IMG/VR virus record: IMGVR_UViG_3300037483_000076
Span: 31,563-95,562 of that record
Length of the DNA: 64,000 nucleotides
Direction: 5' to 3' (one strand)
Source of the DNA: a virus
Position 1 is the stretch's first letter, and the number at the start of each line of letters is the position of its first letter. This document shows, piece by piece, positions 5,864 through 40,687 of this stretch. Under the pieces are notes generated by a model. It did not search any database, had not been told where the DNA came from, and saw only the letters and a program-made list of their open reading frames with translations. Made by a program: the position numbers and the translations under genes.

Positions 5864-6997
5864 TTAATCAAACTTTAATAAGAAATCTGGATTAATTACT
5901 TTAAATGAAAGTAATTTCTTACCATTCTCAATACACCTAACTACTATACCTTCTCTAGGAATATCTGCTAATACAGATTTACCTTTACTAAATTCAACTA
6001 GTTCTTGAACTGTTGAACCTAATTCTGAAAGTTTACATTTTTTAATTAAAGGTACTCTTTCTAATTTATTATCTCCACAAAATTTAGTAATTTCATCATA
6101 GTCATAAAAATAATTTGTAACATAGTCAATAATATTAAATACCCACATCTTTGTAGTATTTAGTTTATACTTATTTCCCTGTACTTGAGGAGCACCTTGC
6201 TCACCTTGGATTGTTAATGAGTTATATTTTTCCCTAATTAATAGTTTCTCAATGCTATATTTATTAGCAATTTGTTGGTATAAACTATTCTTACTATTGT
6301 TAACAAAGTTTCTACTACATACTATAAATTTAAACTTCTTTGGTAAGAATTTACCAATTATTGGTATAGTATTAGGAATCATTTTACCAGTAAACGTAAC
6401 ACTCTGGTAATCTATTTTCTCAGTAACATATACTTCATTATCTGCAAATTGGTGTAATACTTGAGGAATATTTTGAATACGTTCTTCATCAGTTTTACTT
6501 ACCCAATATGGAAATCCAGACTTTTGTTTCTTAGTAAGAAATAATTTTCTAAACCAAGAATATCTCATCATAAACTTCTTAAGTCTATTCTTTTCTAACT
6601 TAATCTTCTCTTCTTCTCTCTGTAATTCAGATTGTTCAAAAGGAGATAAGTACTTAGTTATACCTAATTCTTCAGTTACATCAGATCCTATAGAACATTT
6701 ATCGTTTCTTTTTACTGTCCAATCTTTAGGTAATGATAGGATTAAACCTTGACTAACTTGTCCTCTAAGTTTAATAGTTTTAACTCTGAATTTCCTATCT
6801 CTAAGGAATTCGTATTCTGGTTTTTCAGGCATTACAGAATCTACTTCTACATAGATTACTTTGTCACCTACTTTAAAACCATCTGTTTTTGCTACAACAC
6901 ATTGCCAACCAAGTACAGTAGCTACTTCAATCTTATCAGCTCCTTCAATTGGAGATAAACTAAGTATCTGTTCAATATGTGCTAATTTTCTATCCAT
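5864..6997 (-). CDS. RNA ligase, DRB0094/Rnl5-like family (N-terminal OB domain plus nucleotidyltransferase)
   Basis: N-terminal RKLA..I....PIEGAD.IE, GW..VV.K and VKTIKLRGQVSQGL; KTDEERIQN; motif I TEKIDY; QGE; EGIVVR; SFKVINPDFLL. Confidence 0.9.
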   Translation of the reverse strand: MDRKLAHIEQILSLSPIEGADKIEVATVLGWQCVVAKTDGFKVGDKVIYVEVDSVMPEKPEYEFLRDRKFRVKTIKLRGQVSQGLILSLPKDWTVKRNDKCSIGSDVTEELGITKYLSPFEQSELQREEEKIKLEKNRLKKFMMRYSWFRKLFLTKKQKSGFPYWVSKTDEERIQNIPQVLHQFADNEVYVTEKIDYQSVTFTGKMIPNTIPIIGKFLPKKFKFIVCSRNFVNNSKNSLYQQIANKYSIEKLLIREKYNSLTIQGEQGAPQVQGNKYKLNTTKMWVFNIIDYVTNYFYDYDEITKFCGDNKLERVPLIKKCKLSELGSTVQELVEFSKGKSVLADIPREGIVVRCIENGKKLLSFKVINPDFLLKFD

Positions 6998-7003
6998 ATT
7001 ATA

Positions 7004-7042
7004 AAAATAAAAAAGGAGCTACTACCTCAATAGTAACTCCTC
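7004..7042 (-). terminator. Terminator/attenuator hairpin between AAA ATPase and RNA ligase
   Basis: aggagctacta/tagtaactcct stem (G-U pair on the minus strand) followed by a U-run on minus. Confidence 0.7.
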
Positions 7043-7064
7043 TAATTAACTTAATCTATGATCT

Positions 7065-8015
7065 TTAATTTAGTTGTATATCACTTACTTCAAATGCATT
7101 ATCATCTGGTGTAGGATAACTACTTAGTAAATCATGTAATTCCATTATTTCATCTGCTGGAGATATAAATCCAACAGAACGTTTCATTTCAAGAGGACTA
7201 GATATAGTAATATCTATAACTTCTCCAGTTCTTTCAAATGTTAGTTGTGACGCAATTACATCTCGAATAATATGTCTTATTCTATCTATTGACATATTTT
7301 TATGACCTTTTAACTTAGTCATAAGTAATTCTGTATCTAATTTACTTCTATAGGATTCTGGAATAAGATTATTAACAATAGTTGCTAACACAATATCATC
7401 ATTAAATGTAAATTCAAATATCTTTTCAAATCTACTAGGTCTATCATGTATAAAAGATGGGAGTTGCGAAGTATCATTTACAGTAGCTATAATAATTACA
7501 TTATCTCGTTCTTTAGCTCCACTTAAAAATGATAACATATCTGTATCATATGATCTAAATGTTTTTTCAAACTCATCCATTATAAGTATTATCTTTCTAT
7601 CTGGATCATCTGATCGTACTCCATCAATAATAGTACTGTAATCACCAGATTTAGTAGCTAATATACCTACAGCATCATATTGGTCACATAGTTCTTCGGC
7701 AATTTGTCCTGCAAGAAAAGTTTTTCCTACTCCAGGTTCACCATTAAACATTACACCTAATTTATTCTTCATACCAAGAATACTACGAGCTTGAACCATA
7801 GATTCAGAAAAGAAGTCATTGAGAAATGTTCTAGCTTCTTTAAATATACCATGATTAACTAAAGTACCTTTTTTATAATCATTGTTCTTAGAGAACATTG
7901 GTGGAGCATTCTGAGATAGAGTAATATTGTACATACCTTTCTCTAATCTTTTCATAGTACTACTAGAAGAGTGTCCTAATAGTACAAAATCATTTGTTTC
8001 ATTTAGTAAAAACAT
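7065..8015 (-). CDS. AAA+ ATPase
   Basis: Walker A GEPGVGKT, Walker B ILIMDEFE, sensor ATVN, Arg finger DRPSRFE. Confidence 0.9.
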   Translation of the reverse strand: MFLLNETNDFVLLGHSSSSTMKRLEKGMYNITLSQNAPPMFSKNNDYKKGTLVNHGIFKEARTFLNDFFSESMVQARSILGMKNKLGVMFNGEPGVGKTFLAGQIAEELCDQYDAVGILATKSGDYSTIIDGVRSDDPDRKIILIMDEFEKTFRSYDTDMLSFLSGAKERDNVIIIATVNDTSQLPSFIHDRPSRFEKIFEFTFNDDIVLATIVNNLIPESYRSKLDTELLMTKLKGHKNMSIDRIRHIIRDVIASQLTFERTGEVIDITISSPLEMKRSVGFISPADEIMELHDLLSSYPTPDDNAFEVSDIQLN

Positions 8016-8048
8016 ATACGTTAATTTTGTTAAATTTGTAATTGTAAT

Positions 8049-8186
8049 TGGACTCTAGACAGGATTCGAACCTGTACGACTAATCCCACCTCAATCTTTC
8101 GATATATAGTATTCGTGAATCATAGTCTAAGCGAATACCTAGCGTCTACCACGACTGGGTAACCCAATCCTTTCACCACTAGAGTC
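8049..8186 (-). ncRNA. Expanded tRNA-Leu(UAG)-like RNA (non-canonical, 138 nt)
   Basis: Acceptor GACTCTAG/CTAGAGTC, Leu-type TGGTGAAA..GGTAGACGC, perfect T arm ACAGG-TTCGAAT-CCTGT. Insertions in the D loop, anticodon loop and variable region. Confidence 0.75.
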
Positions 8187-8237
8187 TTTATACTGTTATA
8201 AAAAGATACTATCTCTTTAACATCACAGTCAGTGTTA

Positions 8238-8564
8238 TTATGCAGTTACTACTACTGAAGTAAGATTAAATTCATATTTAGGTTCTTCACCAAATAAGTC
8301 TTTAAATGTTTCCAATGCTTCAGTAAATGACTTAGTTGCCATCTTAACTTTAAGGGCTAATTTAGCAATTGTACTAAAATCTGGTTTGTTCTGTGAATCA
8401 ACCTTAGATTTACGAAGGTCTGTTTCAGAAGTTTTAACTTCTTTATACATGTTGAACAATTCTCCTTCTGCTTGAATTTGAAGTTCTAATGCCGATTCTT
8501 CTAATTTAGTTACTTCAGCTTTGTCGTTTTGTGCTTTCCAAAAAGATACTAAAAAATTTGTCAT
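8238..8564 (-). CDS. Hypothetical protein
   Basis: 108 aa ORF with an A-rich leader, co-oriented with neighbours. Confidence 0.7.
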   Translation of the reverse strand: MTNFLVSFWKAQNDKAEVTKLEESALELQIQAEGELFNMYKEVKTSETDLRKSKVDSQNKPDFSTIAKLALKVKMATKSFTEALETFKDLFGEEPKYEFNLTSVVVTA

Positions 8565-8585
8565 ATTATTTAAGTTTTATATTAT

Positions 8586-8888
8586 TTATATTAATAAAAT
8601 TAATGTATCTGCTTCAGGTGCAGAAATAACCTTTAAAAATACCTTTTCAGTGGTAAAAATATCAATATTTGAATGATTATCGTTCCATTCTTCTTGATCA
8701 GTACAACCACAATCGTATTCATCACAATAATAACAATATGGAGTGTAACATCCTTTTATATTATTTATAGTTATCCAATAATCTCCAGAAGTATAGTTTA
8801 CTACTATTCCAGTAGAACCTTCTTCTAATCCATGATAACCTCCAGTTAATTGTACAATACAACCATTTTCTATTTCGAGATTTTTCAT
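8586..8888 (-). CDS. Hypothetical small beta-barrel-like, Cys-containing protein
   Basis: 100 aa; overlaps the neighbouring ORF by ATGA; ends DTLILLI. Confidence 0.7.
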   Translation of the reverse strand: MKNLEIENGCIVQLTGGYHGLEEGSTGIVVNYTSGDYWITINNIKGCYTPYCYYCDEYDCGCTDQEEWNDNHSNIDIFTTEKVFLKVISAPEADTLILLI

Positions 8889-9109
8889 AATAGTAGGATT
8901 AGTATGTCTTGGGATGGACTAATTAATTCTAATTCACTTGGAGTATACCAATATCCATGTCCACTTTTACATGTATATGAACAATGATGTCCCATCATAT
9001 AATCATCATGTTCTACTCCAAGTGTATCTCCTTCTTTACACATAATTATACCAGGTGAACGAGTTGTGTAAATAATAGACTTAACTCTATCTCCAACTTT
9101 AAATTCCAT
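8885..9109 (-). CDS. Hypothetical SH3/KOW-like protein
   Basis: Starts MEFKVGDRVK, typical of small phage SH3-like proteins; ends DILILLL. Confidence 0.7.
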   Translation of the reverse strand: MEFKVGDRVKSIIYTTRSPGIIMCKEGDTLGVEHDDYMMGHHCSYTCKSGHGYWYTPSELELISPSQDILILLL

Positions 9110-9125
9110 ATATTTAGCTATTTAG

Positions 9126-9199
9126 AAGCCCTACATTAAACGATCTATACGAAGTAATAGTTTATATCACTTTATATAGATCGTTTAATCATGAGGCTT
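9126..9199 (-). other. Long intergenic hairpin
   Basis: Perfect 15-bp attaaacgatctata/tatagatcgtttaat with outer aagcc/ggctt and an inner extension. Confidence 0.75.
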
Positions 9200-9211
9200 A
9201 AAATGGGTTAA

Positions 9212-10015
9212 TTACCAACTTATACCGAAAGGAATAAACCAATCGTAATTACCACTTTTTTTACTACGATTTAACCGTTCTTGTTCATCGCGATTTTTAC
9301 GTAATTCCTGTTCTTTTTCCTGTATCTCCTTTTCAGCAGCTACACGAACAGCCTGATTAGTAAGAGCTAACCATATACGTTTAAAGATGTTCATACCAAT
9401 AAACTCATCAACTTGTCCTTTAAGTTTCTTAATTTGAAGTTTCAGAGTAGCTATTTCCTCAGTACGAAGTTTTTCTAACTGTTCATCAGTCTTATCTTCT
9501 TTTACTTTAGTAATCTCTTCCTGTAATTCTTTAATTTTAAGATCTTTCTTAGTAGTTCGTTCTTTATAGTCACGTTCTAGTTCTTCACCACGAAGTGTGT
9601 ATAATTGACGAGTATTAGCTATTTCTGAATCCTTGTCTTTACGGAATCTCTCAATTTTATCGTTATGATCTTCAACAGCTTTCTTAGTAGTCTTTAATTC
9701 AGACTCTAATTTTTCTATCTCAGATTTAAATTTCTTTTCAGTAGCCTTTTCTATATCAAGTTTAACAGAATCAAGATTACGATATTCAATTATATTAGCT
9801 GGGACATATCCAAAACGATCTACTCCTTGTTGAATTATACGAACTTCAGGTTGTTTAGATTTAAGTTCTTCAATTTGACGTTCAAGAGTACTAATATGAG
9901 ATTCCTGAGTACCTATTTCACGATTAAGTGATTCTACATTAGTTTTAGAACTATTTAATTCTTCAGTTAATTCTAATACTTTATTTACTAAAGACATATC
10001 TTGTGTATTTTCCAT
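9212..10015 (-). CDS. Coiled-coil hypothetical protein
   Basis: 267 aa, E/K-rich heptad pattern. Confidence 0.75.
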   Translation of the reverse strand: MENTQDMSLVNKVLELTEELNSSKTNVESLNREIGTQESHISTLERQIEELKSKQPEVRIIQQGVDRFGYVPANIIEYRNLDSVKLDIEKATEKKFKSEIEKLESELKTTKKAVEDHNDKIERFRKDKDSEIANTRQLYTLRGEELERDYKERTTKKDLKIKELQEEITKVKEDKTDEQLEKLRTEEIATLKLQIKKLKGQVDEFIGMNIFKRIWLALTNQAVRVAAEKEIQEKEQELRKNRDEQERLNRSKKSGNYDWFIPFGISW

Positions 10016-10067
10016 AATTATATTTGGATTATTTGTTATTATTTGTAAATTGTCAAAATTGATGTAA

Positions 10068-10616
10068 TTATTTTATATAGATATATTTGTCTATATTTAT
10101 ATAAGTAATTATTGATTTAATTATAGAATCTAAATCAGTAACTTGAATTAATTGTAATCTAGTTTCTAAATCTAATATAATTGGATTAACTACTGACCAA
10201 TCGTATTGGTTAATGTTAAGAATTCTTAGTGCTTCATTAGAATTACTTCTTTCTAAAGAAATTAATTCATCTTTTTTAAGTTCTTCAATTAATTCATTAG
10301 ATGCATTTGCTAACCAATTGATTACAGATGTATCTCCACTCCAATCTGATTCTGTTTTTACATATTTTTCATCTATATCTTTAAGTTTACGATATAATTC
10401 GGCTACTTCAAGATTAGTCTGATATTCTTTTTCAATAGAATCAACTTTGTTTTTGTAATCATCAGATTCTATTATTTCAACTAGTGCTTTCTTATAAGCA
10501 TCAGAAGATTTAATTTCTTCCATTTTGGTTTCTAACTGTGGTTTGATATAATCTCTTTTAATTATATCTAATATATTGTTAATCTGATTGTCGTTCAACA
10601 ATTGGATCTCTGTCAT
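10068..10616 (-). CDS. Hypothetical protein
   Basis: 182 aa ORF within the operon. Confidence 0.7.
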   Translation of the reverse strand: MTEIQLLNDNQINNILDIIKRDYIKPQLETKMEEIKSSDAYKKALVEIIESDDYKNKVDSIEKEYQTNLEVAELYRKLKDIDEKYVKTESDWSGDTSVINWLANASNELIEELKKDELISLERSNSNEALRILNINQYDWSVVNPIILDLETRLQLIQVTDLDSIIKSIITYINIDKYIYIK

Positions 10617-11091
10617 TTTCTAAAAGTTTAAAATTAAACATGTTGTATAACGATCCCATATTTCTAGTCTCCTGTTGGAGATTAAATTTGGGCCAGTACT
10701 CCTTCTCTAAGGAAGGATATAGAACTTTGTTAGCTTTTGCTGACCAGTAATCTAATATTTTTTGTGTCTTATATAAAACACTGTGAAAGTAAGAATTTTT
10801 ATCTTCTTGCCAAAAGTAAAGTATCTGTTGTTTTGATTTATCTGATAATTTTGAATATTTACTTCTGGTTATTAAGTCTCTTTCTGGTATGATATCTTTA
10901 GGTAGTCTGAATCTAGCTATATTGTTATCATACTCTATAATTATACTATTTTCTGGATCTATCATTTTACTATCAGAAATATAGCAGTTTGTAAAATTGT
11001 CGAAAATTAAGGCAGTGTAAGTTATCTCTGGATATAGTAATGGAAGTAAGAATATAGTAGTTTTACTCTTCTTTATATCTATAATATCCAT
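10579..11091 (-). CDS. Hypothetical protein
   Basis: 170 aa ORF translationally coupled to the upstream nuclease. Confidence 0.7.
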   Translation of the reverse strand: MDIIDIKKSKTTIFLLPLLYPEITYTALIFDNFTNCYISDSKMIDPENSIIIEYDNNIARFRLPKDIIPERDLITRSKYSKLSDKSKQQILYFWQEDKNSYFHSVLYKTQKILDYWSAKANKVLYPSLEKEYWPKFNLQQETRNMGSLYNMFNFKLLENDRDPIVERQSD

Positions 11092-12062
11092 TATAATATC
11101 TCTACTCCATTATTAATATAGTACTCTTGTCTATGTTCCCATTGGTTATTATCATAATGCCATTTAATCTTAGGGAGCACTTCTTCTATTTCATTTAATC
11201 CTCTAGATAACCAATCTTCAGATATTTCTAATACTCTACATTCAGGAAGATCTCCTTTCTGTAAACCTACTATATATGTCTTCTTAGTATATTCATCTAC
11301 ATTGATATCCTTATCTTTACAGAATTGATGTAATGCTGCCCAATAGAATGCCATTTGTCGATAATAACTAAATTCTTCAAATGAATGAGAGAATTCACCT
11401 AAATTAGATGTAGTTTTTATATCTACTAGCTTAATTATCTTATTAGTATGATCTATTACTAGTCTATCTAACATAGATTTACATGGTATTCCAAACCATT
11501 CAAAGAATATGATATTTTCATTATATTCTTCTATGTTCATCATTCTATCCTCACCTGTAAGATATAGAAGTTTACTAGCTGCAATATGTGTTTTAGTATA
11601 TTCTGCTAAATCTTCTATTAACTTATTGTCAGTATATGTCAATACATCTTTAACTTCAGATCTTTTCTTAAGGTAACTAATATATTTACTTAATTGTTTC
11701 TTAAGTTCCGTTGCTTTCTCAAGTATTTTTTCATCCGATATCTTGTCTGAGGTATAGTTACTTTTATATGCAAAAAGTAATCTCTTGTCTGCTGTCTTGG
11801 ATCTACAGGTGATGTAGTCTTCACAAAATTTACGCTGGTTCTCGGACTTAGGAGTGTCATAATCCAAGAATATATAATTTTTATCAAACTCATTTGGCTC
11901 TAGTATTTTCATGTGAATCTTCTTACCTATCTCAAAGTATCTTTTAGTTTCCTGTTCTATTTCTTTATCAAGCATTTTCTTGAAGAATAGAGGAGATTGT
12001 TCAAACCACTTCAGTGATGATGAAGATACTCGTTTCTCACTATAATATTCTTTCTCTGTCAT
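11091..12062 (-). CDS. PD-(D/E)xK exonuclease, RecE/ExoVIII-like (DUF3799-like)
   Basis: SSSSLK..SP..F, G..IH..ILEP, CKSMLDRL, VDIKTT, YYRQMAFY. Confidence 0.85.
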   Translation of the reverse strand: MTEKEYYSEKRVSSSSLKWFEQSPLFFKKMLDKEIEQETKRYFEIGKKIHMKILEPNEFDKNYIFLDYDTPKSENQRKFCEDYITCRSKTADKRLLFAYKSNYTSDKISDEKILEKATELKKQLSKYISYLKKRSEVKDVLTYTDNKLIEDLAEYTKTHIAASKLLYLTGEDRMMNIEEYNENIIFFEWFGIPCKSMLDRLVIDHTNKIIKLVDIKTTSNLGEFSHSFEEFSYYRQMAFYWAALHQFCKDKDINVDEYTKKTYIVGLQKGDLPECRVLEISEDWLSRGLNEIEEVLPKIKWHYDNNQWEHRQEYYINNGVEIL

Positions 12063-12214
12063 TATATATCATATAAATCGTCGATTAATGTATCGACCGG
12101 TAAATCTACTAATGCTTGAATTATCTCATCTTTTATAAGTAATAATGTAGCATCTGGTAAATCATCTATATGATAGTTTAATATTTCTAATATTAAATTG
12201 TCTACTATTTTCAT
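12062..12214 (-). CDS. Small acidic hypothetical protein (50 aa, not in ORF track)
   Basis: MKIVDNLILEILNYHIDDLPDA..., overlapping neighbours at both start and stop. Confidence 0.55.
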   Translation of the reverse strand: MKIVDNLILEILNYHIDDLPDATLLLIKDEIIQALVDLPVDTLIDDLYDI

Positions 12215-12657
12215 TTATTTGACTGTATTAATTCTATACATTGATCTACCTGTTTTTGATTCTTTGGTAAATATAAGTCAAATTTGATATTGTTGTCAGT
12301 TAGATATTTCTTAAATATTTTCCACCGAAGTAAAAATGAGTCTGTTGCAACTCCTTTAGTTTCTATTAACCATCCATTTCCTACGAAATCCGGTGTGTAT
12401 TTCATAGATTGATATTTAGGGGTACGCTTAGATAATAAAGCACCTCTTTTCTTATCACTTTCATATACAAGATATTGATATGTAAATGGTAATTGTAATA
12501 CAAAACTTGTAGGTGTATATTCAAAGACTAGTTCAGCTTTCTTTAATGCTTTGTAACAATATACTTCTAAATTACTATCAAAAGTAATTCCATCGTATAC
12601 AGGTTTATCTTTACGCTTACTAGGACTATTTATTCTCTTTTTTCCTAGTTTCTTCAT
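12211..12657 (-). CDS. Endonuclease I-like / DUF1064-like PD-(D/E)xK nuclease (possible Holliday junction resolvase)
   Basis: DGITFDS.LE, YTPDF, IETKG. Confidence 0.8.
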   Translation of the reverse strand: MKKLGKKRINSPSKRKDKPVYDGITFDSNLEVYCYKALKKAELVFEYTPTSFVLQLPFTYQYLVYESDKKRGALLSKRTPKYQSMKYTPDFVGNGWLIETKGVATDSFLLRWKIFKKYLTDNNIKFDLYLPKNQKQVDQCIELIQSNK

Positions 12658-12988
12658 TACAATCTAAAATTAGTAATTCATTTTCAGCAGATAATTTATC
12701 TAACCATTGTTTCCATTCGTAATGATATTGCCAAAACATTGCATTTGCCATAATATGACCTATATGTCTTTGTTGAGATTCAGGATCTATAATTTCACCA
12801 GACATTAGTGCAAATAAGTGTCTACTTAAAGACTCCAGTACTTGATTAAGGTCTAATCCCTTTTTCCAATTTTCTCTAGCATATTTTTGTGCCCCATATT
12901 CCATAACTCTTACTAATGGTTCTAGTGATTTAAAATCTATTAAGCTCCATTGTAGTTTACCTTCATTATATCTTAGACTTTGTTCCAT
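12626..12988 (-). CDS. dATP/dGTP diphosphohydrolase-like protein (DUF5664)
   Basis: GK.QWSL, VMEYGAQKYARENWKKG, SLSRHL, D.ES...HIGH...NAMF. Confidence 0.85.
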   Translation of the reverse strand: MEQSLRYNEGKLQWSLIDFKSLEPLVRVMEYGAQKYARENWKKGLDLNQVLESLSRHLFALMSGEIIDPESQQRHIGHIMANAMFWQYHYEWKQWLDKLSAENELLILDCNEETRKKENK

Positions 12989-18264: not shown

Positions 18265-18654
18265 TTATTTGTTATTTATTGATAATTCATATTGAGCTTT
18301 ACATATACTAATTAAGTCAGGATCATTAAATGAGTACATATCTGGGATATCTAATACTACACATTTATTAGTAAATCCTAATTCTTCTATCTCATTTTTA
18401 ACTTTGTTATAATTCTCAGAATTAACAAAAACTATTTCGTCTGCCCATGTTACAAGAGCTTCACTAATTGGAATTAATGCATATGATTCCTCTGTACCAC
18501 AATTTCTTACATTATATCCATATTCTCTAATGAGAAAATTTTGTAATGTAGCAGACCTTAGTAATCCAGCAGAACATACAGTAAGTATTTTCTTAATAGT
18601 TCCTTGATAAACATTACTAGTAGTAGCTAATTGATTTTTTGTTCCCTTTATCAT
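18265..18654 (-). CDS. Low-molecular-weight protein-tyrosine phosphatase-like protein
   Basis: P-loop VCSAGLLRS (CX5R), WADEI, LDIPD. Confidence 0.85.
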   Translation of the reverse strand: MIKGTKNQLATTSNVYQGTIKKILTVCSAGLLRSATLQNFLIREYGYNVRNCGTEESYALIPISEALVTWADEIVFVNSENYNKVKNEIEELGFTNKCVVLDIPDMYSFNDPDLISICKAQYELSINNK

Positions 18655-21130
18655 TTCTCTATTTTGTTAATAATTTTATTACATTCATTGATATAATAGT
18701 TATAATTAATATCATATTCTGACATAGATAATTTCTTATATCTATTGAATACTGTGGATAAATATCCTTTTTCAACACTAGTTTCTCTACCATCTTCATT
18801 ACATTTAATAAATGTTTTTCCATTAGTAGATACATAATATCTAACGTTTTTTGATAATTTGTTAGCTATTTGATAAGTTTTTTTAAGTTCGTCAATAGAT
18901 TGATTTAGTGCTGTGGATAATCTAACTCCTTTTTCCATTTCTGGTTTAGTATAGAGATTACCAAGTTCGATCCAATCATATTCTTTTATAAACTCTATCT
19001 TCTCATCTTTATCATTAAAGATTGGGATAATAGGTTCTTGATCGTAATATCTTTCTTCTAACCACCATCCTTTAACGGTTTTAACTCGTTTACAGAAATG
19101 GTATATGTTACCATGATTTAGTATAGTTTCTTCAATAGGTATGTTATTTATGAAGTAATTTGTTAATGCTATACGAACTATGCGCATAGAGTTATTCTTA
19201 TGAATCTCTGACTCTATTTCAAAGTCACCTTTACGTTTAATCTCATTGTTATTATCTAAAGCAATGTAATCGTTTACAGATGTTTGAATTAAGAGTTTGT
19301 AATCTTTGTATTCAAGTTGACCTGATTCACTATTACCTACTTTCTTTTCCCATTCATGACATATATCATAATACTTATTATTGAGATGTTTATCAAATAG
19401 ACACACTATACCATCTGTATTAGCAGATACTACATGTATATTATTTAACTCCATATCTTCTATAAGCATTAGAATCTCAAATTGATTACCAATTGTACAA
19501 GAGAATTGTACTAATGGATCAAATTGCCATGAATTTATTTCATTGGTTTTACCAAAACCTCCCATACCACTATAGTTTTCACTACCGATCAAATACATTC
19601 GCGTTCACGTCTATGCCTAATTGTTTGTGGTCTGGACTATATCTTAATAAACTGAAAGCCAACTTTTACTGCCCTTTGTGGGGCAAGCGACAGGACTCGA
19701 ACCTGTTCTTAATAGTTTATTTTCCTGCATTTCTATTATTTCTAATAGGTCTCTCGACAGTCTCTACGGCTGAATCTAATAAATCCCATATTTGTAATAT
19801 CCGAATCATACGATCCGAATATAAAATTTATTAACCTATGCCTCGGTATTAGCTTGTTATATTTAAGTGTTTATAGAAAGTTGCGAACTTCATATAACTG
19901 GTACACATAATTTAGCTTTCACCGATATTCAGGAATTTAAAAACGGCAGCTACGTTTACCGTTTAAAGCTAATTTAAATACCTCTTGTATAGAGTTATAT
20001 TTAGCTTTCTTTGTTTTCTTATAAGTAGATTTAGCATCTAATCTACGAGATATATTATCTTTATATCCTTGTATCCATGCTTCACCTAAGTGTCTAGGAT
20101 AGAGATTACGTTTGACAATAGCATTTGGGTATTGACTACCTACATCTGCGTCACGAAGTATTTGTGACTCAGTGGGAATTAACTTCCTAGGCTTATCAAC
20201 AGAATGTAATCCTCCTCTAGCTATAGTATAACTAGTATCTTTAAATTCTAAATTAAAGATCTGTTTCTCTCCGTCTGTATCTTGTATTACAGGAGTATCT
20301 CTAATTAGATTATAAAAATCATTAAGTTCTTGTGTCTTAAAGTGTACGTAATTAGGAATACATTGTCCAAATGTAAAATTATCTATAAACTTAGGAAGTA
20401 CTTTAATTTGTTTCCAATCTAATCCTGAGTTCTTAGAGTAATTAAGCTTGTTTAGTTCATCACCAATCTTAACATCATTGTAGTTAATACAATTGATACC
20501 AAACTCAGCTTGTATATCCTTACGTAATTGTAATTTATCCTTACCTTTATATAGAGGATTTTCTGTATCTCCTATAGTAATCTTATAGAATTCATATGTA
20601 GCTAATACATCATTTAAGTTATAAGATAAGATATCAGTTACTTCTTCATCTGTAACATAATGACTAGGTTCAAATGGCATATCCTCGACATTTTCAAAGT
20701 CCATAGCTATTTCTACAGCCTTTAACGAGGTATGTTTAGCTTTATTATCAAAATGCCAGATCTTAAATAGATCTAATTGAGGAATAAGAGTTTTCCATTC
20801 AGGTATACTAGACCATTCTGTATTAATTACTTCATTAGATTTGTTATAAATTAGATTAGTTAAATAATCTGGATATTCTGATATAGAATGTCCAAATAGT
20901 TCTAAATCTTTATATGTTAACAAATAGTGTAATATAGGGTAGTCATAATTTATATTATTAAATCCTATTAATCCCAAAACTTCGGTTTGTAAAAATTTGA
21001 TATATTCTGAAAAGTCATTTCTGGATTTATGTATTACGAATTGTCTAATCTCCTGATTATCTATTGCTAAAAATGTAGCAGTATGAATATTCAACAGTAC
21101 CTCAATATCGTAGACCCAGACTCTCTTCAT
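18651..21130 (-). CDS. polB: Family B DNA polymerase; exons 21130-19958 and 19562-18651
   Basis: Exo I YDIE, Exo II FNNINYD, Exo III YNLND, motif A DVGSQYP, motif B reconstituted as KLALNG|GGFGK, motif C NTDG. The exons join in frame. Confidence 0.92.
19563..19957 (-). mobile_element. Group I intron (395 nt, no homing endonuclease ORF) in polB motif B
   Basis: P1 AACGGU/GCCGUU with U.G at the 5' splice site; P3 UUCCUG/CAGGAA; P AAUAUCGGUGAAA; Q GCUAAUACCGAGG; R GCCGUAGAGACUG; S AAGAUAUAGUCC; terminal G. Removal restores the reading frame. Confidence 0.92.
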
Positions 21131-33383: not shown

Positions 33384-33821
33384 TTATTTAAAATTTAAAA
33401 CGTTTTTGATTTTAGTGATAATTGTTAACAAATTTGATTTTTTAGGTAGATTTAACTCTTCCCCAAGAGTAAATATTTTTTCGAACTTATTTAATTTTCC
33501 GATTAAAATTGGATCATCTACTTCAATTAAACTTGAAGCAAACTCAATGTTTTCAATACTATTTTGATTTTTGTAATTGATATGTGTTTTGATCCATACA
33601 TTCGCTAGAGGTGAAGAGGTATTACCCCATTTACCTTTGTCACACATTGCTTTTGATGTAGCATAGTTTTTCTTATAAGGTTTAATAAAGATAACTTGTT
33701 GTTTTTTATCTCCATCTATTACCTCATATACCAACTTGATACCTCCCATTTCAGTATCTTTGATTATCTTATTACCAGAAATTTCAGGGATATCTTGACT
33801 AATTATTCTATATTTTGACAT
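33384..33821 (-). CDS. Hypothetical protein
   Basis: 145 aa. Confidence 0.7.
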   Translation of the reverse strand: MSKYRIISQDIPEISGNKIIKDTEMGGIKLVYEVIDGDKKQQVIFIKPYKKNYATSKAMCDKGKWGNTSSPLANVWIKTHINYKNQNSIENIEFASSLIEVDDPILIGKLNKFEKIFTLGEELNLPKKSNLLTIITKIKNVLNFK

Positions 33822-33843
33822 ATTAATTAGATTAAAGATAAAA

Positions 33844-35260
33844 AAGTAAGCAGTCCTTTGACAGCAGAAGCCAATTATTGGTCGTTTCTGAGAATTCTGT
33901 AACTATTGCTAATTTTGTAATTCTACTGCTTATTTGTAATATACGAATGAGCTGTCTATTTTTTTGTATAGACTTACTATTTTGTTGTTTACGATATTTA
34001 ATCGTTATGAACTCACTATATCGCTATGATCTTCGAAATCTGTTACTTATGAGATAACTAGCTCAAGTGTTACGGTATTATTAGCCATATCCGTAGGCCA
34101 CTTATCTTCTAATTATATATCTCCATATTTCACTATGAAGCTGATTAATCCATGTACAACCTTACAGTTGTGTTGCGACTAATCAATAATTATTGATAAA
34201 TACAAGAAAGTAAATTTGTTATTTTTGGTAATATTGTTTGGGAAGGTATTTCTGTAACTCAGAATGAATTACATGGAGATAATGTCTCATATACATTGGA
34301 TTGTATAGGACGTAAATATCGACCTTAATTTACACATTTCATTGTATATTGAATTCTATACAACTTCCTTTCAACCTGTCGTAATTGGAATATTCGTACA
34401 GTATGTGACTCCAGTTCATTTTCTTAAGTACTGGTAACAATCAGGTGTTTATACCCATTTCCCAGGGACACCACAAACTGAATTATCTTTTAATACACCA
34501 GTGATTTGACACTGAATCTGAGACCACCTATTTACGATAGGCTCCACGTTCCACGTAGATGTATACTAAAATTACTTCTATAAAATAACCGACTTCTTCT
34601 ACCGCATTTGTTTGTCAAAGGGTTTTACTCTAAAGAACACCTACATTTTTATGTTAATTTGTCTTCGTTAGCCTTTACACAACCAGTTGTCGGGAATCTC
34701 ACCCTATCGCTAATCATAATGTTATACAAGGAGTATTATAAACAAATAGTATTAGTATTTGAATTATGTACTAGAAGGAGTTTATCATAGAAATATGGAT
34801 AACTTCTATAATAAACTCGTTAATGTAAGATAGTCAAACTGTGAACGAATCACTTTTCTCATTACTGATAGTTTGAACTGAAGTACACTATCTTCTAATA
34901 ATAGGTCTTTATAATACGAAGGATCTGCTATAATCCTGACGACTTTAGAGTAATAACTTAGCGCTATGAGTTACCTCGTAGTTATTATTGTTCTCTAGTG
35001 AGTTTAATTGTAAGTTGTGTTGTGTACATTTTAGGATGTACGTTCTCCTTTATTTGTAATAAAAGTTTTAATCTAGGCATGTTAAATTCAGTACGCCCTA
35101 TGGTATTTAAAAATATGTAATAAATACCACCATACATTTGTTCATTATTATTGGACAAGCCTACACGATATTAGGTACATTGAACCAATTCGCTAATACC
35201 GCTTTATTGCAATTTAGACCTCCTCTATTAATTAAAATAGAATCTCCTCCTTACAGTAAA
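33844..35260. ncRNA. Large ORF-free structured region (about 1.4 kb); candidate giant ncRNA or ncRNA cluster
   Basis: No credible ORF; many local and nested long-range inverted repeats (see findings). Confidence 0.55.
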
Positions 35261-35268
35261 GAATTATC

Positions 35269-35361
35269 TTACGATGTTGAATTTGGAGGATTTTTATGTT
35301 CATATAATATATGATATACTATCCAACAAAGTATAAATATTATAGCAATACCATGTATCAT
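35269..35361 (-). CDS. 30-aa single-TM peptide (not in ORF track)
   Basis: MIHGIAIIFILCWIVYHILYEHKNPPNSTS; ATG lies 1 nt after the upstream stop. Confidence 0.5.
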   Translation of the reverse strand: MIHGIAIIFILCWIVYHILYEHKNPPNSTS

Positions 35362-35362
35362 A

Positions 35363-35497
35363 CTACATTTCCTCCCAAGCTTCAAATTTTAATATCCTTA
35401 GTTGTTTAATTGTGAACATACTAGTTAATATTGATGTAACTGTAGTTCCCTGTGCTTTATAGAGCTTTCCATCAAATTTAAAGATGAATATTTTCAT
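35363..35497 (-). CDS. 44-aa hypothetical protein (not in ORF track)
   Basis: MKIFIFKFDGKLYKAQG...; overlaps the end of the upstream gene. Confidence 0.5.
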   Translation of the reverse strand: MKIFIFKFDGKLYKAQGTTVTSILTSMFTIKQLRILKFEAWEEM

Positions 35498-36890
35498 AAT
35501 ATCTTCTGATTATACGGTTATAACTATCTCGTTGAAAATCACCTATAGGAATAATTTCATCTATATATTCAAAACTGCTAGTTTTTGAATTGATGATGAT
35601 CCTATATTGTTCAAGAGTTAAAATGAATCTATCATATGATAATCCTAGGTAATCTAGGACATCTTGATCAACATTGATCAAAAGAATTAACTTATTATCA
35701 TTTGATATTAATAGACAAGATTCTATGGTATTAATGTGGTTAAATACATTTTCTACGTCATTTGACATTATATAACCAAATTTTCCATGTACAACACTTT
35801 CTTTTCTACCACTAAAAAATAGATGTTGATTAAAATCGCTTGAGATATTTATCTGTAGATTATCTTCTTCAAATAAACTAGATAAAGGTAATTCTTCACT
35901 TAGTAGTCTACCAACGGATCCTTTTAGAAATCTTGCAGGATGTTCATAAGCAGTTATACCACATTCTTCAACTCTGCCAAAAGTTGTAGTATAAGGTATT
36001 TTTAGTTTATTTAACATATCCTCTATCTTTTGTGGTAGTGTAGAGTTCAGGATAATCAATTGTTGTAACTTAGGAAATAACTTCTTTATTTTTGATTTAA
36101 GATAGTATTTTCTAAATATCCACAATTTTAGATCCTTTAGAATGTTATTTTTGAAATCTTCAACATTCTCTATGTATTTCTTATAGAGAAGCATAAAATC
36201 AAATGCTGTAAGTATTACAACTTCTGGTTCATGCTCCTCTAACTCATGTCTTAATCCATAACTATCTTTGTTTTGAGGAATTACTATTGTTATTCCACAA
36301 GTTAGTGGTAGTAATACAGAGATTAGATAGTTATAGGTAAATTCTACCTGTCCTAAGTAAGTAGTACTCTCATCAAATACTTTATTCCTTCCAAGTAATA
36401 TCATGGTATTTAATATTTTATCATGATCTATAGTTACTGGAATTAACTTATTAGGAGATATTACTGATATGGATGTATTTGTTTCAAATATGTCCCCATC
36501 TTTTATTGGAAACTTTGTAAAGATCTTTATATTAATTACATTACATAAAAAGTAATAATCATCATATTGTTGATCAGTTAATACTAACTGTATATTCCAA
36601 CGAGGAACTGATACAATTAGATCTTCAATATCTGACTTTATACTAAATAATACTAATTTATGCCTACTAAATAGTATGGCAAAGAATGTAATTATCCAAT
36701 CAACACTGTTTTCAGCAACTAGTAAAATTCTAATAGGCGATTTATACGCTTTGTTTAGAATTTCAGCAAGTGCCCTGGATCTTTTAAAAATATATCTGTA
36801 TGTATAACTTTTACTATTATATATTACAAAGATGTTTTCTAAATAGAGTTCAAAGAACCCTATAATTTTTTCAATCAATTTGCTTTTCAT
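35478..36890 (-). CDS. Degenerate AMP-binding (long-chain acyl-CoA synthetase-like) protein
   Basis: YTY, ENSVDWI..FFA, FGRVEECG, GSVGR, GRKE, IESCLL match the ANL fold; the canonical TSGTTGxPKG loop is absent. Confidence 0.7.
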   Translation of the reverse strand: MKSKLIEKIIGFFELYLENIFVIYNSKSYTYRYIFKRSRALAEILNKAYKSPIRILLVAENSVDWIITFFAILFSRHKLVLFSIKSDIEDLIVSVPRWNIQLVLTDQQYDDYYFLCNVINIKIFTKFPIKDGDIFETNTSISVISPNKLIPVTIDHDKILNTMILLGRNKVFDESTTYLGQVEFTYNYLISVLLPLTCGITIVIPQNKDSYGLRHELEEHEPEVVILTAFDFMLLYKKYIENVEDFKNNILKDLKLWIFRKYYLKSKIKKLFPKLQQLIILNSTLPQKIEDMLNKLKIPYTTTFGRVEECGITAYEHPARFLKGSVGRLLSEELPLSSLFEEDNLQINISSDFNQHLFFSGRKESVVHGKFGYIMSNDVENVFNHINTIESCLLISNDNKLILLINVDQDVLDYLGLSYDRFILTLEQYRIIINSKTSSFEYIDEIIPIGDFQRDSYNRIIRRYYENIHL

Positions 36891-37218
36891 AGCCTATTAT
36901 TGTTATTTTTTGATTATTAACAAATGGATGAATTACTTCGTCTAACTTGAATGTTTGTCCAGAATTATGGATAGTGATGAGATAGTTATTACAATGATCT
37001 GGTTCAGTTATTTGATTTTCAACCACTATTTTCATTGTGTTATTCTCATTAGTTATAGTAAATACACTGTTTCTACTTAAACTAATTTTAGCCATTATCT
37101 TATTAAAACATTTAGTTATATTAGTTATAGCTAATATAGATGGAGTTTTACCTACACTATGATTAGCTATCTCTATTTTTCTCATTGAATTAATGAGATC
37201 ATTACTGTCTTTTGTCAT
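36871..37218 (-). CDS. Hypothetical protein
   Basis: 115 aa coupled ORF. Confidence 0.6.
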   Translation of the reverse strand: MTKDSNDLINSMRKIEIANHSVGKTPSILAITNITKCFNKIMAKISLSRNSVFTITNENNTMKIVVENQITEPDHCNNYLITIHNSGQTFKLDEVIHPFVNNQKITIIGYEKQID

Positions 37219-37717
37219 AAAAAATAGATTTATATTTTGAACTATTATCTAATAAGGATTTTTGATTTCCTAAGATGTTAGCGCATTTTTTCTTCGGTAC
37301 AATTGTACCAGCGGTAATGTTATTAGTCCTATCTGTGTAATCAGATAAGAATAAAATGAGTTCGCTTGATCCATTTGATGTATCAATTGAATCTTTTAGT
37401 TCTTCCAGGATTAAATAACCCTGTTTCATCTCCATTGATGATAATGCCCATACATTTGACTCTTCAGTGTAACCCAATATCTTTCTTCCTGATAATAGTG
37501 GAAGAATAAGTCCCTTGAGTTGAAGATTAATCTCCTTAATACGAGAATCTACTTCGTCGAGCATTTCTTGGAAATACTTATTTGTGTGTAATATAACTCC
37601 TGTTTCAGCACTGTTTGATCTGGCTTTAATTAAGAATTCTTTGTATAGTCTTAGTTTAAAGATATTTTTAGAATATCGGACTATACGTTCAATTACTGTA
37701 TTTTCTTGCTTTTTCAT
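37202..37717 (-). CDS. Hypothetical protein
   Basis: 171 aa coupled ORF. Confidence 0.65.
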   Translation of the reverse strand: MKKQENTVIERIVRYSKNIFKLRLYKEFLIKARSNSAETGVILHTNKYFQEMLDEVDSRIKEINLQLKGLILPLLSGRKILGYTEESNVWALSSMEMKQGYLILEELKDSIDTSNGSSELILFLSDYTDRTNNITAGTIVPKKKCANILGNQKSLLDNSSKYKSIFYDKRQ

Positions 37718-37938
37718 ACTAATTCGGTTAATTCATTAATAATACAACCTCTGTGATTATCTGATTCTTCAGTGTGAATGAATCTACCATCACTATCTTG
37801 CCAGTTAGAGTATGTCGTAACTATACCATATTTAGTTTCACTAGGATCTATGGTTATTTTCCTAAGAATATTATTCATTAGTTCAATTAGTGATGGTCTA
37901 TTATTACTACAAACTCTTATTATTAGTTCATGCGCCAT
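37714..37938 (-). CDS. Hypothetical protein
   Basis: 74 aa coupled ORF. Confidence 0.6.
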   Translation of the reverse strand: MAHELIIRVCSNNRPSLIELMNNILRKITIDPSETKYGIVTTYSNWQDSDGRFIHTEESDNHRGCIINELTELV

Positions 37939-37943
37939 ATTTA

Positions 37944-38315
37944 CTATTTTAAATAAGTTTTACGAATTATTTCACGAGCTAAATCCATATCACCTTTAGC
38001 TTTAGTTAAATAATCTATCGCTTGTTTGATAGAACATGCACTAAGATCTCTTAATCTTTGTATTTCAATAGATGAAGGAACATAATCTAATTCAAAGTAT
38101 TCCTTTTCTTTAATGACTTTTTTAATGTTTGGTTTAGAGCATTGTTCTATAAAGTCTTTTTTAGTTCCAAAATAGATTTCATTATGTTCTAAGTTTAAAG
38201 ATACAAATGGTATTGTTTCCATTTCATCACCTTTATAAACAAGAATAGTCATTCCTTCTTCTTTTGCAAACTCAGTAATACTTTGTATTAATTTGTTAAG
38301 TTTTAAATCTGTCAT
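37944..38315 (-). CDS. Hypothetical protein with a C-terminal EF-Ts N-terminal/UBA-like motif
   Basis: IQRLRDLSACSIKQAIDYLTKAKGDMDLAREIIRK resembles the EF-Ts N-terminal (VKELR..TG......K.AL....GD.E.A...LR) UBA-like helix bundle. Confidence 0.6.
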   Translation of the reverse strand: MTDLKLNKLIQSITEFAKEEGMTILVYKGDEMETIPFVSLNLEHNEIYFGTKKDFIEQCSKPNIKKVIKEKEYFELDYVPSSIEIQRLRDLSACSIKQAIDYLTKAKGDMDLAREIIRKTYLK

Positions 38316-38340
38316 ATAATTGGTTTTAATTAGACATAGT

Positions 38341-38379
38341 AAAAAGAAGAGAGGTATGACATCACTGCCACCCTCTCTT
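38341..38379 (-). terminator. Intrinsic terminator after the 713-aa gene
   Basis: aagagagg/cctctctt hairpin with a U-run on minus. Confidence 0.6.
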
Positions 38380-38430
38380 GTGTCTAAAGGAGGTTGCCCC
38401 CTAAACTATGAAAGATAAAAAAGGAGTAAT

Positions 38431-40572
38431 TTACTTAGTTTTAATTCCAGCAATTACTTTTAATTTGTTAATGATATTAACCATATCATCTGGACGAGTA
38501 CCTTTATAAGGTTTACTCTGTTTGATAAGCTTAGCAAGTTCTTCTTCGGATATACCTGCTTTTAAAGCTTCTACAGCTAATTCCTTAACTCTATTACTTT
38601 TTGTTTCCTTAGCAATTGCAGAGAAATCAGTTACTTTATCATTAGTACGACTCTCTTCTACAATCTCTTGTGGAGTAGTTTCGGAAACCTCTTCGGTTTT
38701 AATTGGTTCAGTTGAAGGTACCTTAGTAGACACTTCAGTATTTTCTACTACTGGTTTAACCTCTTCAATGTTCTGTAACCGGGCTTTCTTTTCTTTTTCA
38801 TGAAATGCTTTAAACCAAATGGTTTTAGAGCTATCATCCATTTCTTTATACAAATCAAATGTATTGAGATGTTGTAATGTAGCATTGTATGCAACAGCCC
38901 AAGCATCTTTAATCAAATCTTTCTTTTCAAATAATATACTTGAAATAAGAGATTCAAATTCTACATTAGTTTTACACTGAATAATACTTTCATAAACATC
39001 TGCATACTCTTTAGAAGTAGCTAAGTCTATGGATTTAGTTAAAGGACGAAACATTGCGTTTTCTGCTTCAACTGTAGTATTTTCAGCAAGAACTTCTTCT
39101 TTAACTGTTTTGAAATATTCGTGGGCTTTCTTATTACCCAGTAACTTACGAGCAGTAGGTAATCTAAGGAATTTAGATACTTCGTTCATAGCATTAATAG
39201 CCTTATCTTTTAGACTAGCTACAATAATACTCTTAACCTGAGACTTAATATCTTCTTCGGTTAATTCAGTTTTTCCTTGTTCTGCTGCTTCATGAGCTGC
39301 TTCAACGATATCATCGTGTTTTAGGCCATTTTCAGGCTCACTATTGATTTCTGTAGTAGATTCTTTAATCTTACCCCAATGAGTCATGATATCCTTCCAG
39401 AGAGGTTTAAATGCCTTCTTTTGATCATCAGTAATATCTGTAACATCTTTAATAGATTTTACAAAATGGGGATAAGCGTCTTTCTGTTTACCATCTTTTA
39501 ACATTTGAATACATTCTGCAAAGAGTGAATCTTTTGTTAAACCTTCTACTGATGTAATAGGAATTGTTTCTTCTTGTTCTTTTGTTTCTACAGGTTTATT
39601 TGTAGATACAGTTAATCCTGTACCACTAGCTGTTAAGCCAGGAGTTCCTTCGTTATTGAAAGCTGTTTTATCCTGTTGAGTAGTTGAATCAGGACTAACG
39701 ATAGAAATTATACCTTTACTTTCTAAATAGTTAGGATCTAATTTAGCTTTAAGCTGATCTGCCCACATAGATAAAGATATCTCTTCCATATCATCTTTAG
39801 GTTCACAAATAGTACCTATTCTATTAGGTAATACTTTAAATAAGAACCTTTGTTCAACGGCAGTTTGATCAAGAAGTTTAGATTTAACTGCTAAATCAAT
39901 AGATAAGTTTAAAGCATTTTCTGCCATATTGTTATCAATTAATATTTTAGCAATTTCATCAATTTTATCTAAATCATTTGGATTAGCTTGAAGTAACACT
40001 TGAACTTCCTGAGGTAATTCAACAGGACTACCAAATACTGTCTTACGTTCATATCCTTTGAACCACTGTTCTTTAGGAGTAACAGTTATGATAGGTTGTT
40101 GTTTCTGATCTTTCTGAGCAGCCTTTTCAAACTTCTTAGTAGCATCTATAACTTTACCTTTAGTAGCTCCTGCTGCCTCTGGTTTAGTTAATATTATCTC
40201 TTGTTTAGTTTGACGTTCCTCAATAGGTTGTTCGACTAAATCTTGGTCAATTATGTTATTTCTAACACTTTCAACTATTTTTACATCATCTGCAGTGGGT
40301 ATAATTAATCCTTGACGAATACTTAATACCTCAGCAGTTAATGCTATACGTTTTTCTAATATTGAATGTAATGTAGCTTTGTTTTGATTTAATTGTGCTA
40401 TATTAGCTCCTGCTACAGTTTTTTGAGATTCAAAGTATTTCATTAATTCAATAGTTTCACCTGGGGTAGCTACTAGTATTAAATCACGAAGTAAATTACG
40501 ATCAGTCTTTTGAATTTCACCGATAAGATTCTTTGTTTCCTGATATTTTAATGCTAAATTTGTATTATTCAT
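38431..40572 (-). CDS. Large early hypothetical protein
   Basis: 713 aa, E/K/T-rich helical modules separated by linkers. Confidence 0.8.
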   Translation of the reverse strand: MNNTNLALKYQETKNLIGEIQKTDRNLLRDLILVATPGETIELMKYFESQKTVAGANIAQLNQNKATLHSILEKRIALTAEVLSIRQGLIIPTADDVKIVESVRNNIIDQDLVEQPIEERQTKQEIILTKPEAAGATKGKVIDATKKFEKAAQKDQKQQPIITVTPKEQWFKGYERKTVFGSPVELPQEVQVLLQANPNDLDKIDEIAKILIDNNMAENALNLSIDLAVKSKLLDQTAVEQRFLFKVLPNRIGTICEPKDDMEEISLSMWADQLKAKLDPNYLESKGIISIVSPDSTTQQDKTAFNNEGTPGLTASGTGLTVSTNKPVETKEQEETIPITSVEGLTKDSLFAECIQMLKDGKQKDAYPHFVKSIKDVTDITDDQKKAFKPLWKDIMTHWGKIKESTTEINSEPENGLKHDDIVEAAHEAAEQGKTELTEEDIKSQVKSIIVASLKDKAINAMNEVSKFLRLPTARKLLGNKKAHEYFKTVKEEVLAENTTVEAENAMFRPLTKSIDLATSKEYADVYESIIQCKTNVEFESLISSILFEKKDLIKDAWAVAYNATLQHLNTFDLYKEMDDSSKTIWFKAFHEKEKKARLQNIEEVKPVVENTEVSTKVPSTEPIKTEEVSETTPQEIVEESRTNDKVTDFSAIAKETKSNRVKELAVEALKAGISEEELAKLIKQSKPYKGTRPDDMVNIINKLKVIAGIKTK

Positions 40573-40639
40573 TTGATTAATTGTTTTTGATTTATTAATA
40601 CTATTTACAATTAATCACAAATTGGAAAAGGGGAATTAG

Positions 40640-40687
40640 TGGAGTTGAGAGACTTGAACTCTCAAGTTGGCCTGAACCAGTACTCCA
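40640..40687 (-). ncRNA. 48-nt mini-tRNA-like element (acceptor stem, T arm and one short hairpin)
   Basis: TGGAGT-A-CTGGTTCAGGCCAA-C-TTGAGAG-TTCAAGT-CTCTCA-ACTCCA. Confidence 0.55.

Follow-up and report, generated by a model that had tools for sequence, protein, structure and literature searches.

The locus and its tRNA content

The stretch analysed here (the window, 64,000 nt) comprises bases 31563-95562 of the 95.5-kb virus record IMGVR_UViG_3300037483_000076, which has a G+C content of 30% and a CheckV completeness of 91%; its label as a crAss-like phage fits the split DNA polymerase gene and the gene content. An earlier reading, made from the letters alone (the sequence-only reading), had singled out three elements on the minus strand that resemble parts of a tRNA, namely an expanded tRNA-Leu-like RNA (element 1, 8049-8186), a T-arm-like hairpin within the DNA polymerase gene (element 2, 19679-19706) and a 48-nt "mini-tRNA" (element 3, 40640-40687), and had proposed that they act as tRNA mimics together with a neighbouring ATPase and RNA ligase. 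The sequence features that it described are indeed present in all three. Element 1 lies on the same strand just after an open reading frame (ORF) of 108 amino acids (aa), and is followed by the genes for an AAA+ ATPase and an RNA ligase.

No canonical tRNA was found in the window either by ARAGORN in default mode or by Rfam at the gathering threshold, which bears out the sequence-only reading, and ARAGORN found none in the whole 95.5-kb genome, where element 1 is the sole tRNA-like match. Neither the transfer-messenger RNA (tmRNA) mode of ARAGORN nor Rfam yielded a tmRNA. The phage uses the standard genetic code, and a suppressor tRNA is therefore not needed; such a tRNA, serving a recoded genome, was considered and rejected, as reading TAG or TGA as sense closed none of the large ORF-free gaps. 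Two large stretches of the window without an ORF of at least 100 aa (33903-35480 and 41793-43194) both stay unclosed when TAG or TGA is read in this way. A TTCRANY loop enclosed by a perfect 5-bp stem occurs three times in the window against an expectation of 0.31, a count reached by 2 of 200 Markov shuffles.

Structure of element 1 and its fit to tRNA models

Element 1 (8049-8186, minus strand) is a 138-nt tRNA-shaped RNA gene with a top half derived from tRNA-Leu and no conserved anticodon arm, as judged from ARAGORN in intron mode, the Rfam tRNA model RF00005 and the comparison of four orthologues. Besides an acceptor stem of 8 bp it has U8, a D arm of the Leu type and a T arm. The 5' strand of the acceptor helix, GACTCTAG (8179-8186), begins with a G that pairs with C73, and the 3' strand, CTAGAGTC, is followed by CA (8049-8058). 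The T arm, located by its sequence and by a stem scan, reads ACAGG-TTCGAAT-CCTGT (8059-8075). Relative to its orthologue in the sister genome G001, the D loop carries an insertion of 19 nt (8150-8168), which together with the preceding GG forms a GGATTGGG/CCCAGTC hairpin; where G001 reads GTGAAAGG-GTAGACAC, the window reads GTGAAAGG, the 19 nt and then GTAGACGC, so aligned that the GTAGAC of the two D arms would be homologous. The place of the anticodon arm and the variable arm is taken by an interior of 65 nt (8076-8140). It contains TTGAGGT, the remnant of a tRNA-Leu(GAG)-like anticodon loop, without the 5' strand of its stem. Since this loop persists in the interior, descent from tRNA-Leu fits.

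RF00005 matched 8051-8185 from end to end with 24.5 bits and an E-value of 0.0075, which is under the gathering score of 29, and ARAGORN detected the element in intron mode only, as tRNA-Ser(CGA) with a 49-nt insert. Thus, of the traits of a canonical tRNA, a 7-bp acceptor stacked on a 5-bp T stem, the UUCRANY loop, U8 and the D-loop GG are present, but the Rfam gathering threshold and default detection by ARAGORN are not reached, and a canonical anticodon arm, with a 5-bp stem, a 7-nt loop and an anticodon shared by the orthologues, is lacking. The z-scores of the whole-element fold are only -1.0 and -1.7.

Other identities were considered as well. At E-values up to 10, element 1 had no Rfam match besides tRNA, and its ends form an acceptor stem, not a Ro-binding stem as in YrlA and the bacterial Y RNAs, in which the tRNA-like module sits within that stem and whose genes neighbour an Rsr (Ro) gene. 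A self-cleaving ribozyme or a group I intron was rejected for want of any Rfam match in the region. Capture of a host tRNA or attachment site was likewise rejected: the 3' halves of elements 1 and 2 had exact matches in none of the bacterial contigs scanned, and the exact 20 nt spanning the T loop, the 3' strand of the T stem and the 3' strand of the acceptor helix of element 1 did not occur in contigs of 185,579 bacterial and archaeal species. An antisense role towards the phage's own genes was set aside too, the longest complementarity being 12 nt (E 0.37).

Conservation of element 1 among its orthologues

Four orthologous sequences were compared, including that of the window; the others come from G001 (a 92-kb sister genome, locus L001), L022 (a 3-kb metagenome contig) and G004 (a 15-kb viral contig, locus L024). 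At all four loci the RNA lies directly after a homologue of the 108-aa ORF (8238-8564, minus strand, in the window), the sole gene that is linked to it consistently. This ORF had no match in Pfam, PHROGs or the protein atlas, and nine further homologues of it exist beyond these loci. Searches for the pattern GGTGAAAGG...AGGTTCGAATCCT and for a degenerate pattern of the 3' end returned mostly chance matches.

All 13 base pairs of the acceptor helix (8 bp) and T stem (5 bp) are kept in the four orthologues, so that 52 of 52 cells are paired, the extended acceptor helix included; sliding the partner strand by one to three columns lowers the pairing to 15-46%. The 3' strand of the acceptor helix is the same in the window, G001 and L022, and G004 differs from them only at the innermost base, compensatorily, the pair having changed from G-C to U-A. 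A further compensatory change in G004 turns the second T-stem pair from C-G into G-C. Also kept are U8, the TTCGAAT sequence of the T loop and the GG of the D loop; the D arm is of the Leu type (GGTAGAC) in three orthologues and of the Ser/Tyr type (CCTGAGTGGTCAAAAGG) in G004.

The part between the D arm and the T arm behaves differently. It measures 65, 63, 61 and 57 nt in the four orthologues, its predicted folds differ, and no fold or motif common to the four interiors was found. Two of them fold no better than shuffled sequences (z of -0.14 and -1.0), and the other two reach -2.3 and -3.7. The anticodons that ARAGORN assigned are inconsistent (CGA, CAA, AGA and AAC), and the intron that it places falls at position 31/32 in one pair of orthologues and at 37/38 in the other. 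Since decoding tRNAs at orthologous positions would not vary so in anticodon and insert site, element 1 most likely decodes nothing and probably reads no codon.

Comparison with G001 locates the change sharply. The non-coding DNA just upstream of element 1 is 98% identical and the 5' and 3' parts of the tRNA-like chassis are each 100% identical, whereas the interior block 8078-8168, which includes the 19-nt D-loop insertion and the 3' part of the D arm, is 44% identical in a forced alignment; identity then returns to 91% in the 33-nt leader and is 54% (nt) in the ATPase gene after codon 6. The interior has therefore either been replaced or diverged far faster than the immediate non-coding flanks. 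As the neighbouring ATPase has likewise diverged, the pattern is in part ordinary phage mosaicism.

From these comparisons we regard element 1 as a genuine conserved tRNA-shaped RNA gene, and as the only one of the three elements with independent support. Selection appears to keep only the top half of the tRNA: the acceptor helix of 8 bp, the T arm and a D arm retaining the elbow-forming GG. The proposal of tRNA mimicry thus stands for element 1, on its conservation and compensatory changes, and is not upheld for the elements and the ligase taken as one system.

Expanded tRNA look-alikes in other phages

A covariance model built from the four orthologues (R1) matched three expanded tRNA look-alikes in the tRNA cluster of the contig L014, with roughly calibrated E-values of 3e-7, 5e-5 and 2e-3. 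These look-alikes (L014:9399-9524, 9728-9860 and 9970-10098, all on the minus strand) are about 120-130 nt long and sit among the ordinary tRNA genes of an unrelated viral contig of 15 kb. Their acceptor and T arms are alike and their interiors different. At E-values up to 5, R1 left rnaC and rnaD of phage T4 unmatched.

In several of these RNAs position 73 is paired with the base preceding position 1, which extends the acceptor helix to 8 bp. This pair is G:C in the crAss-like group (8186/8051 in the window), T:A in the L014 trio and C:G in RNA2 of phage T5 (L039:3460-3584), which suggests that an acceptor helix of 8 bp may characterise tRNA look-alikes of this kind. An over-long tRNA-like gene was also seen at L059:1166-1314, in a cluster of nine tRNAs about 3 kb from a ligase homologue; ARAGORN calls it tRNA-His, with an insert of 73 nt.

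The AAA+ ATPase and the RNA ligase

The AAA+ ATPase gene (7065-8015, minus strand; PF00004; phrog_2376/168/3277) encodes a clamp-loader- or helicase-loader-like protein and belongs to a replication block that also contains the polymerase, a DnaB-like helicase and an AAA_24 protein. Its start lies 33 nt beyond element 1, and the ligase gene (5864-6997, minus strand) comes next, an arrangement correctly described by the sequence-only reading. The ligase is an Rnl5-type ATP-dependent RNA ligase, with PF21189 at residues 5-88, PF09414 at 188-368 and a match to phrog_968. Among solved structures it comes closest to NgrRnl, the Rnl5 ligase of Naegleria (5COT, E=9e-29), and it has the N-terminal OB domain (PHA02142) and the nucleotidyltransferase domain that characterize the Rnl5 ligases NgrRnl and DraRnl.

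The linkage of the ligase to element 1 that had been suspected did not survive comparison. An intrinsic terminator with a 14-bp stem followed by a T run (7012-7043, minus strand) separates the ATPase gene from the ligase gene. In G001 the ligase slot is missing, and the ATPase gene directly abuts a convergent gene encoding a 1149-aa protein (97% identical). About 75 nt of the G001 terminator region match the window on both sides of the ligase gene (5805-5879 and 6999-7073), and terminators flank the gene at 5820-5853 (plus strand) and 7043-7012 (minus strand). Because the same G001 sequence matches both flanks, the ligase looks like a cassette that a bidirectional terminator region has either gained or lost. 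No ligase homologue was found in G001 (92 kb, 87% complete), G002 (100% complete), G003, G004 (a 15-kb fragment) or G005, nor, by tblastn only, in the 3-kb contig L022.

The co-occurrence was also surveyed from the side of the ligase, in 80 viral loci carrying ligase homologues of 33-71% identity, each with 4-kb flanks. R1 had no match under E 0.4, so that none of the 80 ligase loci has an RNA of the element 1 type within 4 kb; missing linkage to the ligase is what the sequence-only reading had itself named as grounds for refutation. tRNA genes lie nearby in two of these loci, one of them L059, the 108-aa ORF in none and a distant relative of the ATPase (25%) in four. Furthermore, no end-healing kinase or phosphatase is recognisable in the genome, the weak AAA_33 matches below the cut-off being the AAA+ ATPase and the DnaB-like helicase, and neither RtcB nor a splicing endonuclease (PF01974) was found there. 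The ATPase is no constant companion of the RNA either: its homologues in G002 and G003 have a terminator hairpin, not a tRNA-like RNA, upstream, and in L022 and G004, two of the four element 1 loci, a terminator and a convergent gene come next, with no ATPase gene downstream of the RNA. On this comparative evidence the ligase is a separately acquired accessory gene, unlinked to element 1.

Element 2 and the split DNA polymerase

Element 2 (19679-19706, minus strand) consists of a T-arm-like hairpin, 7 nt and C-CCA, that is, ACAGGTTCGAGTCCTGT followed by CGCTTGC, C and CCA, and lies within the 338-nt spacer that splits the DNA polymerase gene. As the sequence-only reading had pointed out, elements 1 and 2 have a T-arm sequence in common, with 16 of 17 positions identical, or 17 of 18 if the next base (C) is counted. 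Exact matches to element 2 were absent from the viral and bacterial contigs scanned.

The two polymerase ORFs, 19937-21130 and 18651-19598, correspond to positions 52-409 and 410-652 of phrog_1252, and the 338-nt spacer is taken as an intervening sequence because the polymerase profile splits at 409/410. Given this split and the core-like blocks conserved with G001, the spacer is very likely an intron, to judge by sequence comparison; the Rfam model Intron_gpI had no match in it at E-values up to 10. The peripheral region of the intervening sequence (polymerase locus at 18651-21130) differs from that of G001 by several insertions and deletions. The G001 spacer lacks the approximately 50 nt that hold the T-arm-like hairpin and the CCA, and with element 2 absent from the nearest relative, its proposed place in a common system is not sustained.

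Element 3

Element 3 (40640-40687, minus strand) is predicted to fold into a 48-nt structure of two hairpins with a 6-bp closing stem and one UUCAAGU loop. The sequence described as a mini-tRNA is there; its likeness to a tRNA, however, found no support, since neither RF00005, at E-values up to 10, nor R1 matches it, the CCA is base-paired within the closing stem, and the stability of the fold does not exceed that of shuffled sequences (z = -0.8). Element 3 is known only from the window and G001, where it is 98% identical and has one A-to-G substitution in a loop; it may be no more than an ordinary hairpin between genes.

Right after element 3 (window 40636-40640), G001 has a 1.7-kb insertion (L025:228-1952) that is absent from the window and flanked by ACTAA direct repeats; within it lie four small ORFs, of 55, 265, 84 and 118 aa, and a terminator of its own. 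A mini tRNA-like sequence of about 52 nt, similar in architecture to element 3, was noticed in a 163-kb phage contig (L031:1447-1500, minus strand). Alongside the acceptor stem (ACTCTA/TAGAGT) it has D and T arms but no anticodon arm.

Interpretation of the locus

Taken together, the pieces are probably unrelated to each other: element 1 would be a non-decoding RNA derived from a class-II tRNA-Leu, the ligase an accessory gene, the ATPase a replication protein, element 2 a hairpin peculiar to its lineage at the periphery of the DNA polymerase intron, and element 3 an intergenic hairpin cluster of unproven significance. No terminator was called between the 108-aa ORF and element 1 in the window, and the two would be co-transcribed. 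RNase P at the 5' end, and RNase Z or exonucleases with CCA addition at the 3' end, could then excise element 1 from the transcript, leaving a stable non-decoding small RNA. In the window genome and in G001, the same excision would cut the message of the 108-aa ORF from that of the ATPase, the latter keeping a 33-nt leader.

Several observations weigh against this interpretation. Only four orthologues are available, both compensatory changes come from one of them (G004), and the shuffle control for compensatory changes was equalled by 38 of 500 shuffles. The match of R1 to T5 RNA2 is borderline (25.2 bits, E 0.011), and the tRNA cluster that accompanies such RNAs in T4 and T5 is missing from this genome. 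Moreover, the similar lengths of the interiors (57-65 nt) hint at an interior function which the interpretation leaves unspecified, and the swap of the interior between flanks that are 98% identical suggests, as far as sequences tell, active cassette exchange or diversifying selection and not a mere processing handle.

These last points lead to the idea that element 1 is a natural "tRNA scaffold", in which the conserved chassis, excised and stabilised by host tRNA enzymes, serves as a processing or stability handle and the interior of about 60 nt is cargo, swapped between phages by recombination via its conserved flanking arms. Such cargo might work on the host side, sequestering as a decoy or sponge an immune nuclease directed at tRNAs, another RNA-binding protein or some other host factor, and the crAss-like lineage would represent the minimal single-copy case. 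Replacement of the interior between flanks of 98-100% identity, the constancy of its length and the three L014 paralogues, with one chassis and different interiors, all speak for this idea, as do engineered tRNA scaffolds, which stabilise foreign RNAs in bacteria (PMC3401473). It is nevertheless rather unlikely, given that the interiors have no common fold or motif, that two of the four fold no better than shuffles, that their complementarity to the phage's own genome never exceeds 12 nt, and that the divergence of the ATPase gene makes the pattern partly one of ordinary mosaicism. If the variable interior were instead read as an insert, element 1 would be a working decoding tRNA from whose RNA short inserts are removed, as may be the case in Lak phages, and the nearby ligase might reseal the exons. 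ARAGORN in intron mode does draw a cloverleaf at all four orthologous sites, and tRNA genes with unexplained inserts are reported from Lak phages (10.1101/356790). The predicted anticodon stems are weak, however, and easily obtained by chance when the insert length is free, and the disagreement of anticodons and insert positions among the orthologues, described above, is difficult to reconcile with decoding. A constant insert site, splice signals or a ribozyme core, and splicing enzymes, as an intron-containing tRNA of the bulge-helix-bulge or group I type should have, are all wanting: no splicing endonuclease, RtcB or kinase was found, the region has no match to a self-cleaving ribozyme or a group I intron, and the ligase is absent from the other element 1 records (G001, 87% complete; G004, a 15-kb fragment; L022, 3 kb, by tblastn only). 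This explanation is therefore judged quite improbable.

That element 1 has no RNA function at all, being a decaying tRNA-Leu pseudogene or an inverted repeat acting at the level of DNA, would agree with its RF00005 score under the tRNA threshold, with the TTGAGGT remnant that has no stem partner and with the modest z-scores of the whole-element fold. Yet the acceptor and T-arm pairing is perfect, with compensatory changes, across lineages whose neighbouring protein is only 79% identical; the T loop, U8 and D-loop GG are conserved; and the length has been retained and not lost to deletions, which leaves decay a very improbable account. Least credible is the original proposal, in which the three elements are tRNA decoys or processing signals that join the ATPase and the ligase in a module for RNA repair or counter-defence. 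It can draw on the enrichment of T-arm-like hairpins (three observed against 0.31 expected), on the T-arm sequence shared by elements 1 and 2 (16 of 17 bases) and on the adjacency of element 1, ATPase and ligase in this genome. Set against these are the terminator before the ligase and the insertion/deletion difference that leaves G001 without it, the survey of ligase loci (0 of 80 with such an RNA), the failure to find an end-healing enzyme, the absence of element 2 from G001 and the want of tRNA-model support for element 3. Comparative sequence data have thus already largely refuted this proposal, and little probability can be left to it.

With unrelated pieces as the preferred interpretation, two consequences follow. 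The tRNA-like stable RNAs on record for phages T4 and T5 carry no assigned function in the GenBank annotations, and a single-copy example in a crAss-like gut phage without tRNA genes of its own means that such an RNA is more than a by-product of a tRNA cluster. As selection seems to act only on that part of the tRNA which processing enzymes see, the hypotheses narrow to a processing or stability handle, a decoy or a scaffold. A phage RNA ligase beside a tRNA-like gene, for its part, needs comparative support before it is called an RNA repair system.

Comparison with known systems

The phage-encoded ATP-dependent RNA ligase recalls the tRNA repair pathway of T4, which consists of Pnkp with Rnl1 and Rnl2; unlike in that pathway, the ligase here is of the Rnl5 type, is accompanied by no kinase or phosphatase that could be found and is unlinked to the tRNA-like RNA. 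Excision of tRNA-like structures from longer transcripts has parallels in the plant mitochondrial t-elements and the mascRNA-type signals, which recruit RNase P or RNase Z to define mRNA ends (PMC1920247). These belong to another domain of life and have no homology to element 1, for which analogous processing is proposed here. The tRNA genes with "enigmatic introns" of the Lak megaphages (Devoto et al., preprint 10.1101/356790), whose inserts are unexplained, resemble element 1 in being over-long, in occurring in gut phages of Bacteroidota and in being found only by intron-aware predictors. For the Lak genes, inserts that are identical across cohorts and a defined anticodon are reported (10.1101/356790), whereas in element 1 the interiors differ among close relatives and no anticodon is consistent.

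The closest counterparts are the stable RNAs of phages T4 and T5. In T4, rnaC (stable RNA species 1, 139 nt) has, like element 1, a tRNA-like acceptor and T arm (CCGGG-TTCGAAT-CCCGG) in its 3' part, and rnaD (species 2, 119 nt) lies beside it; both are annotated as "small, stable RNA", are located in the T4 tRNA cluster and are processed together with tRNAs. Beyond the T arm they have no detectable sequence relationship to element 1. T5 RNA1 and RNA2 (AY543070, misc_RNA), annotated as "tRNA-like stable RNA with unknown functions", are 125-144 nt in size and, like element 1, have a large interior without an anticodon. RNA2 shares with element 1 a run of 20 nt, CAGGTTCGAATCCTGTCTAG, and the extra -1:73 pair that closes the acceptor helix, and RNA1 has a Leu-type D arm, GGAATTGGTAGAC, as element 1 does. 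The T5 RNAs lie in a large tRNA cluster, in contrast to the genome of element 1, which is without any tRNA, and the host and phage lineage differ. Element 1 therefore departs from these RNAs in its location outside a tRNA cluster, and agrees with them in being an RNA of 100-145 nt with the acceptor and T arm of a tRNA and a non-anticodon interior; from its sequence it is best read as belonging with the phage tRNA-like stable RNAs, T4 rnaC and T5 RNA1 and RNA2.

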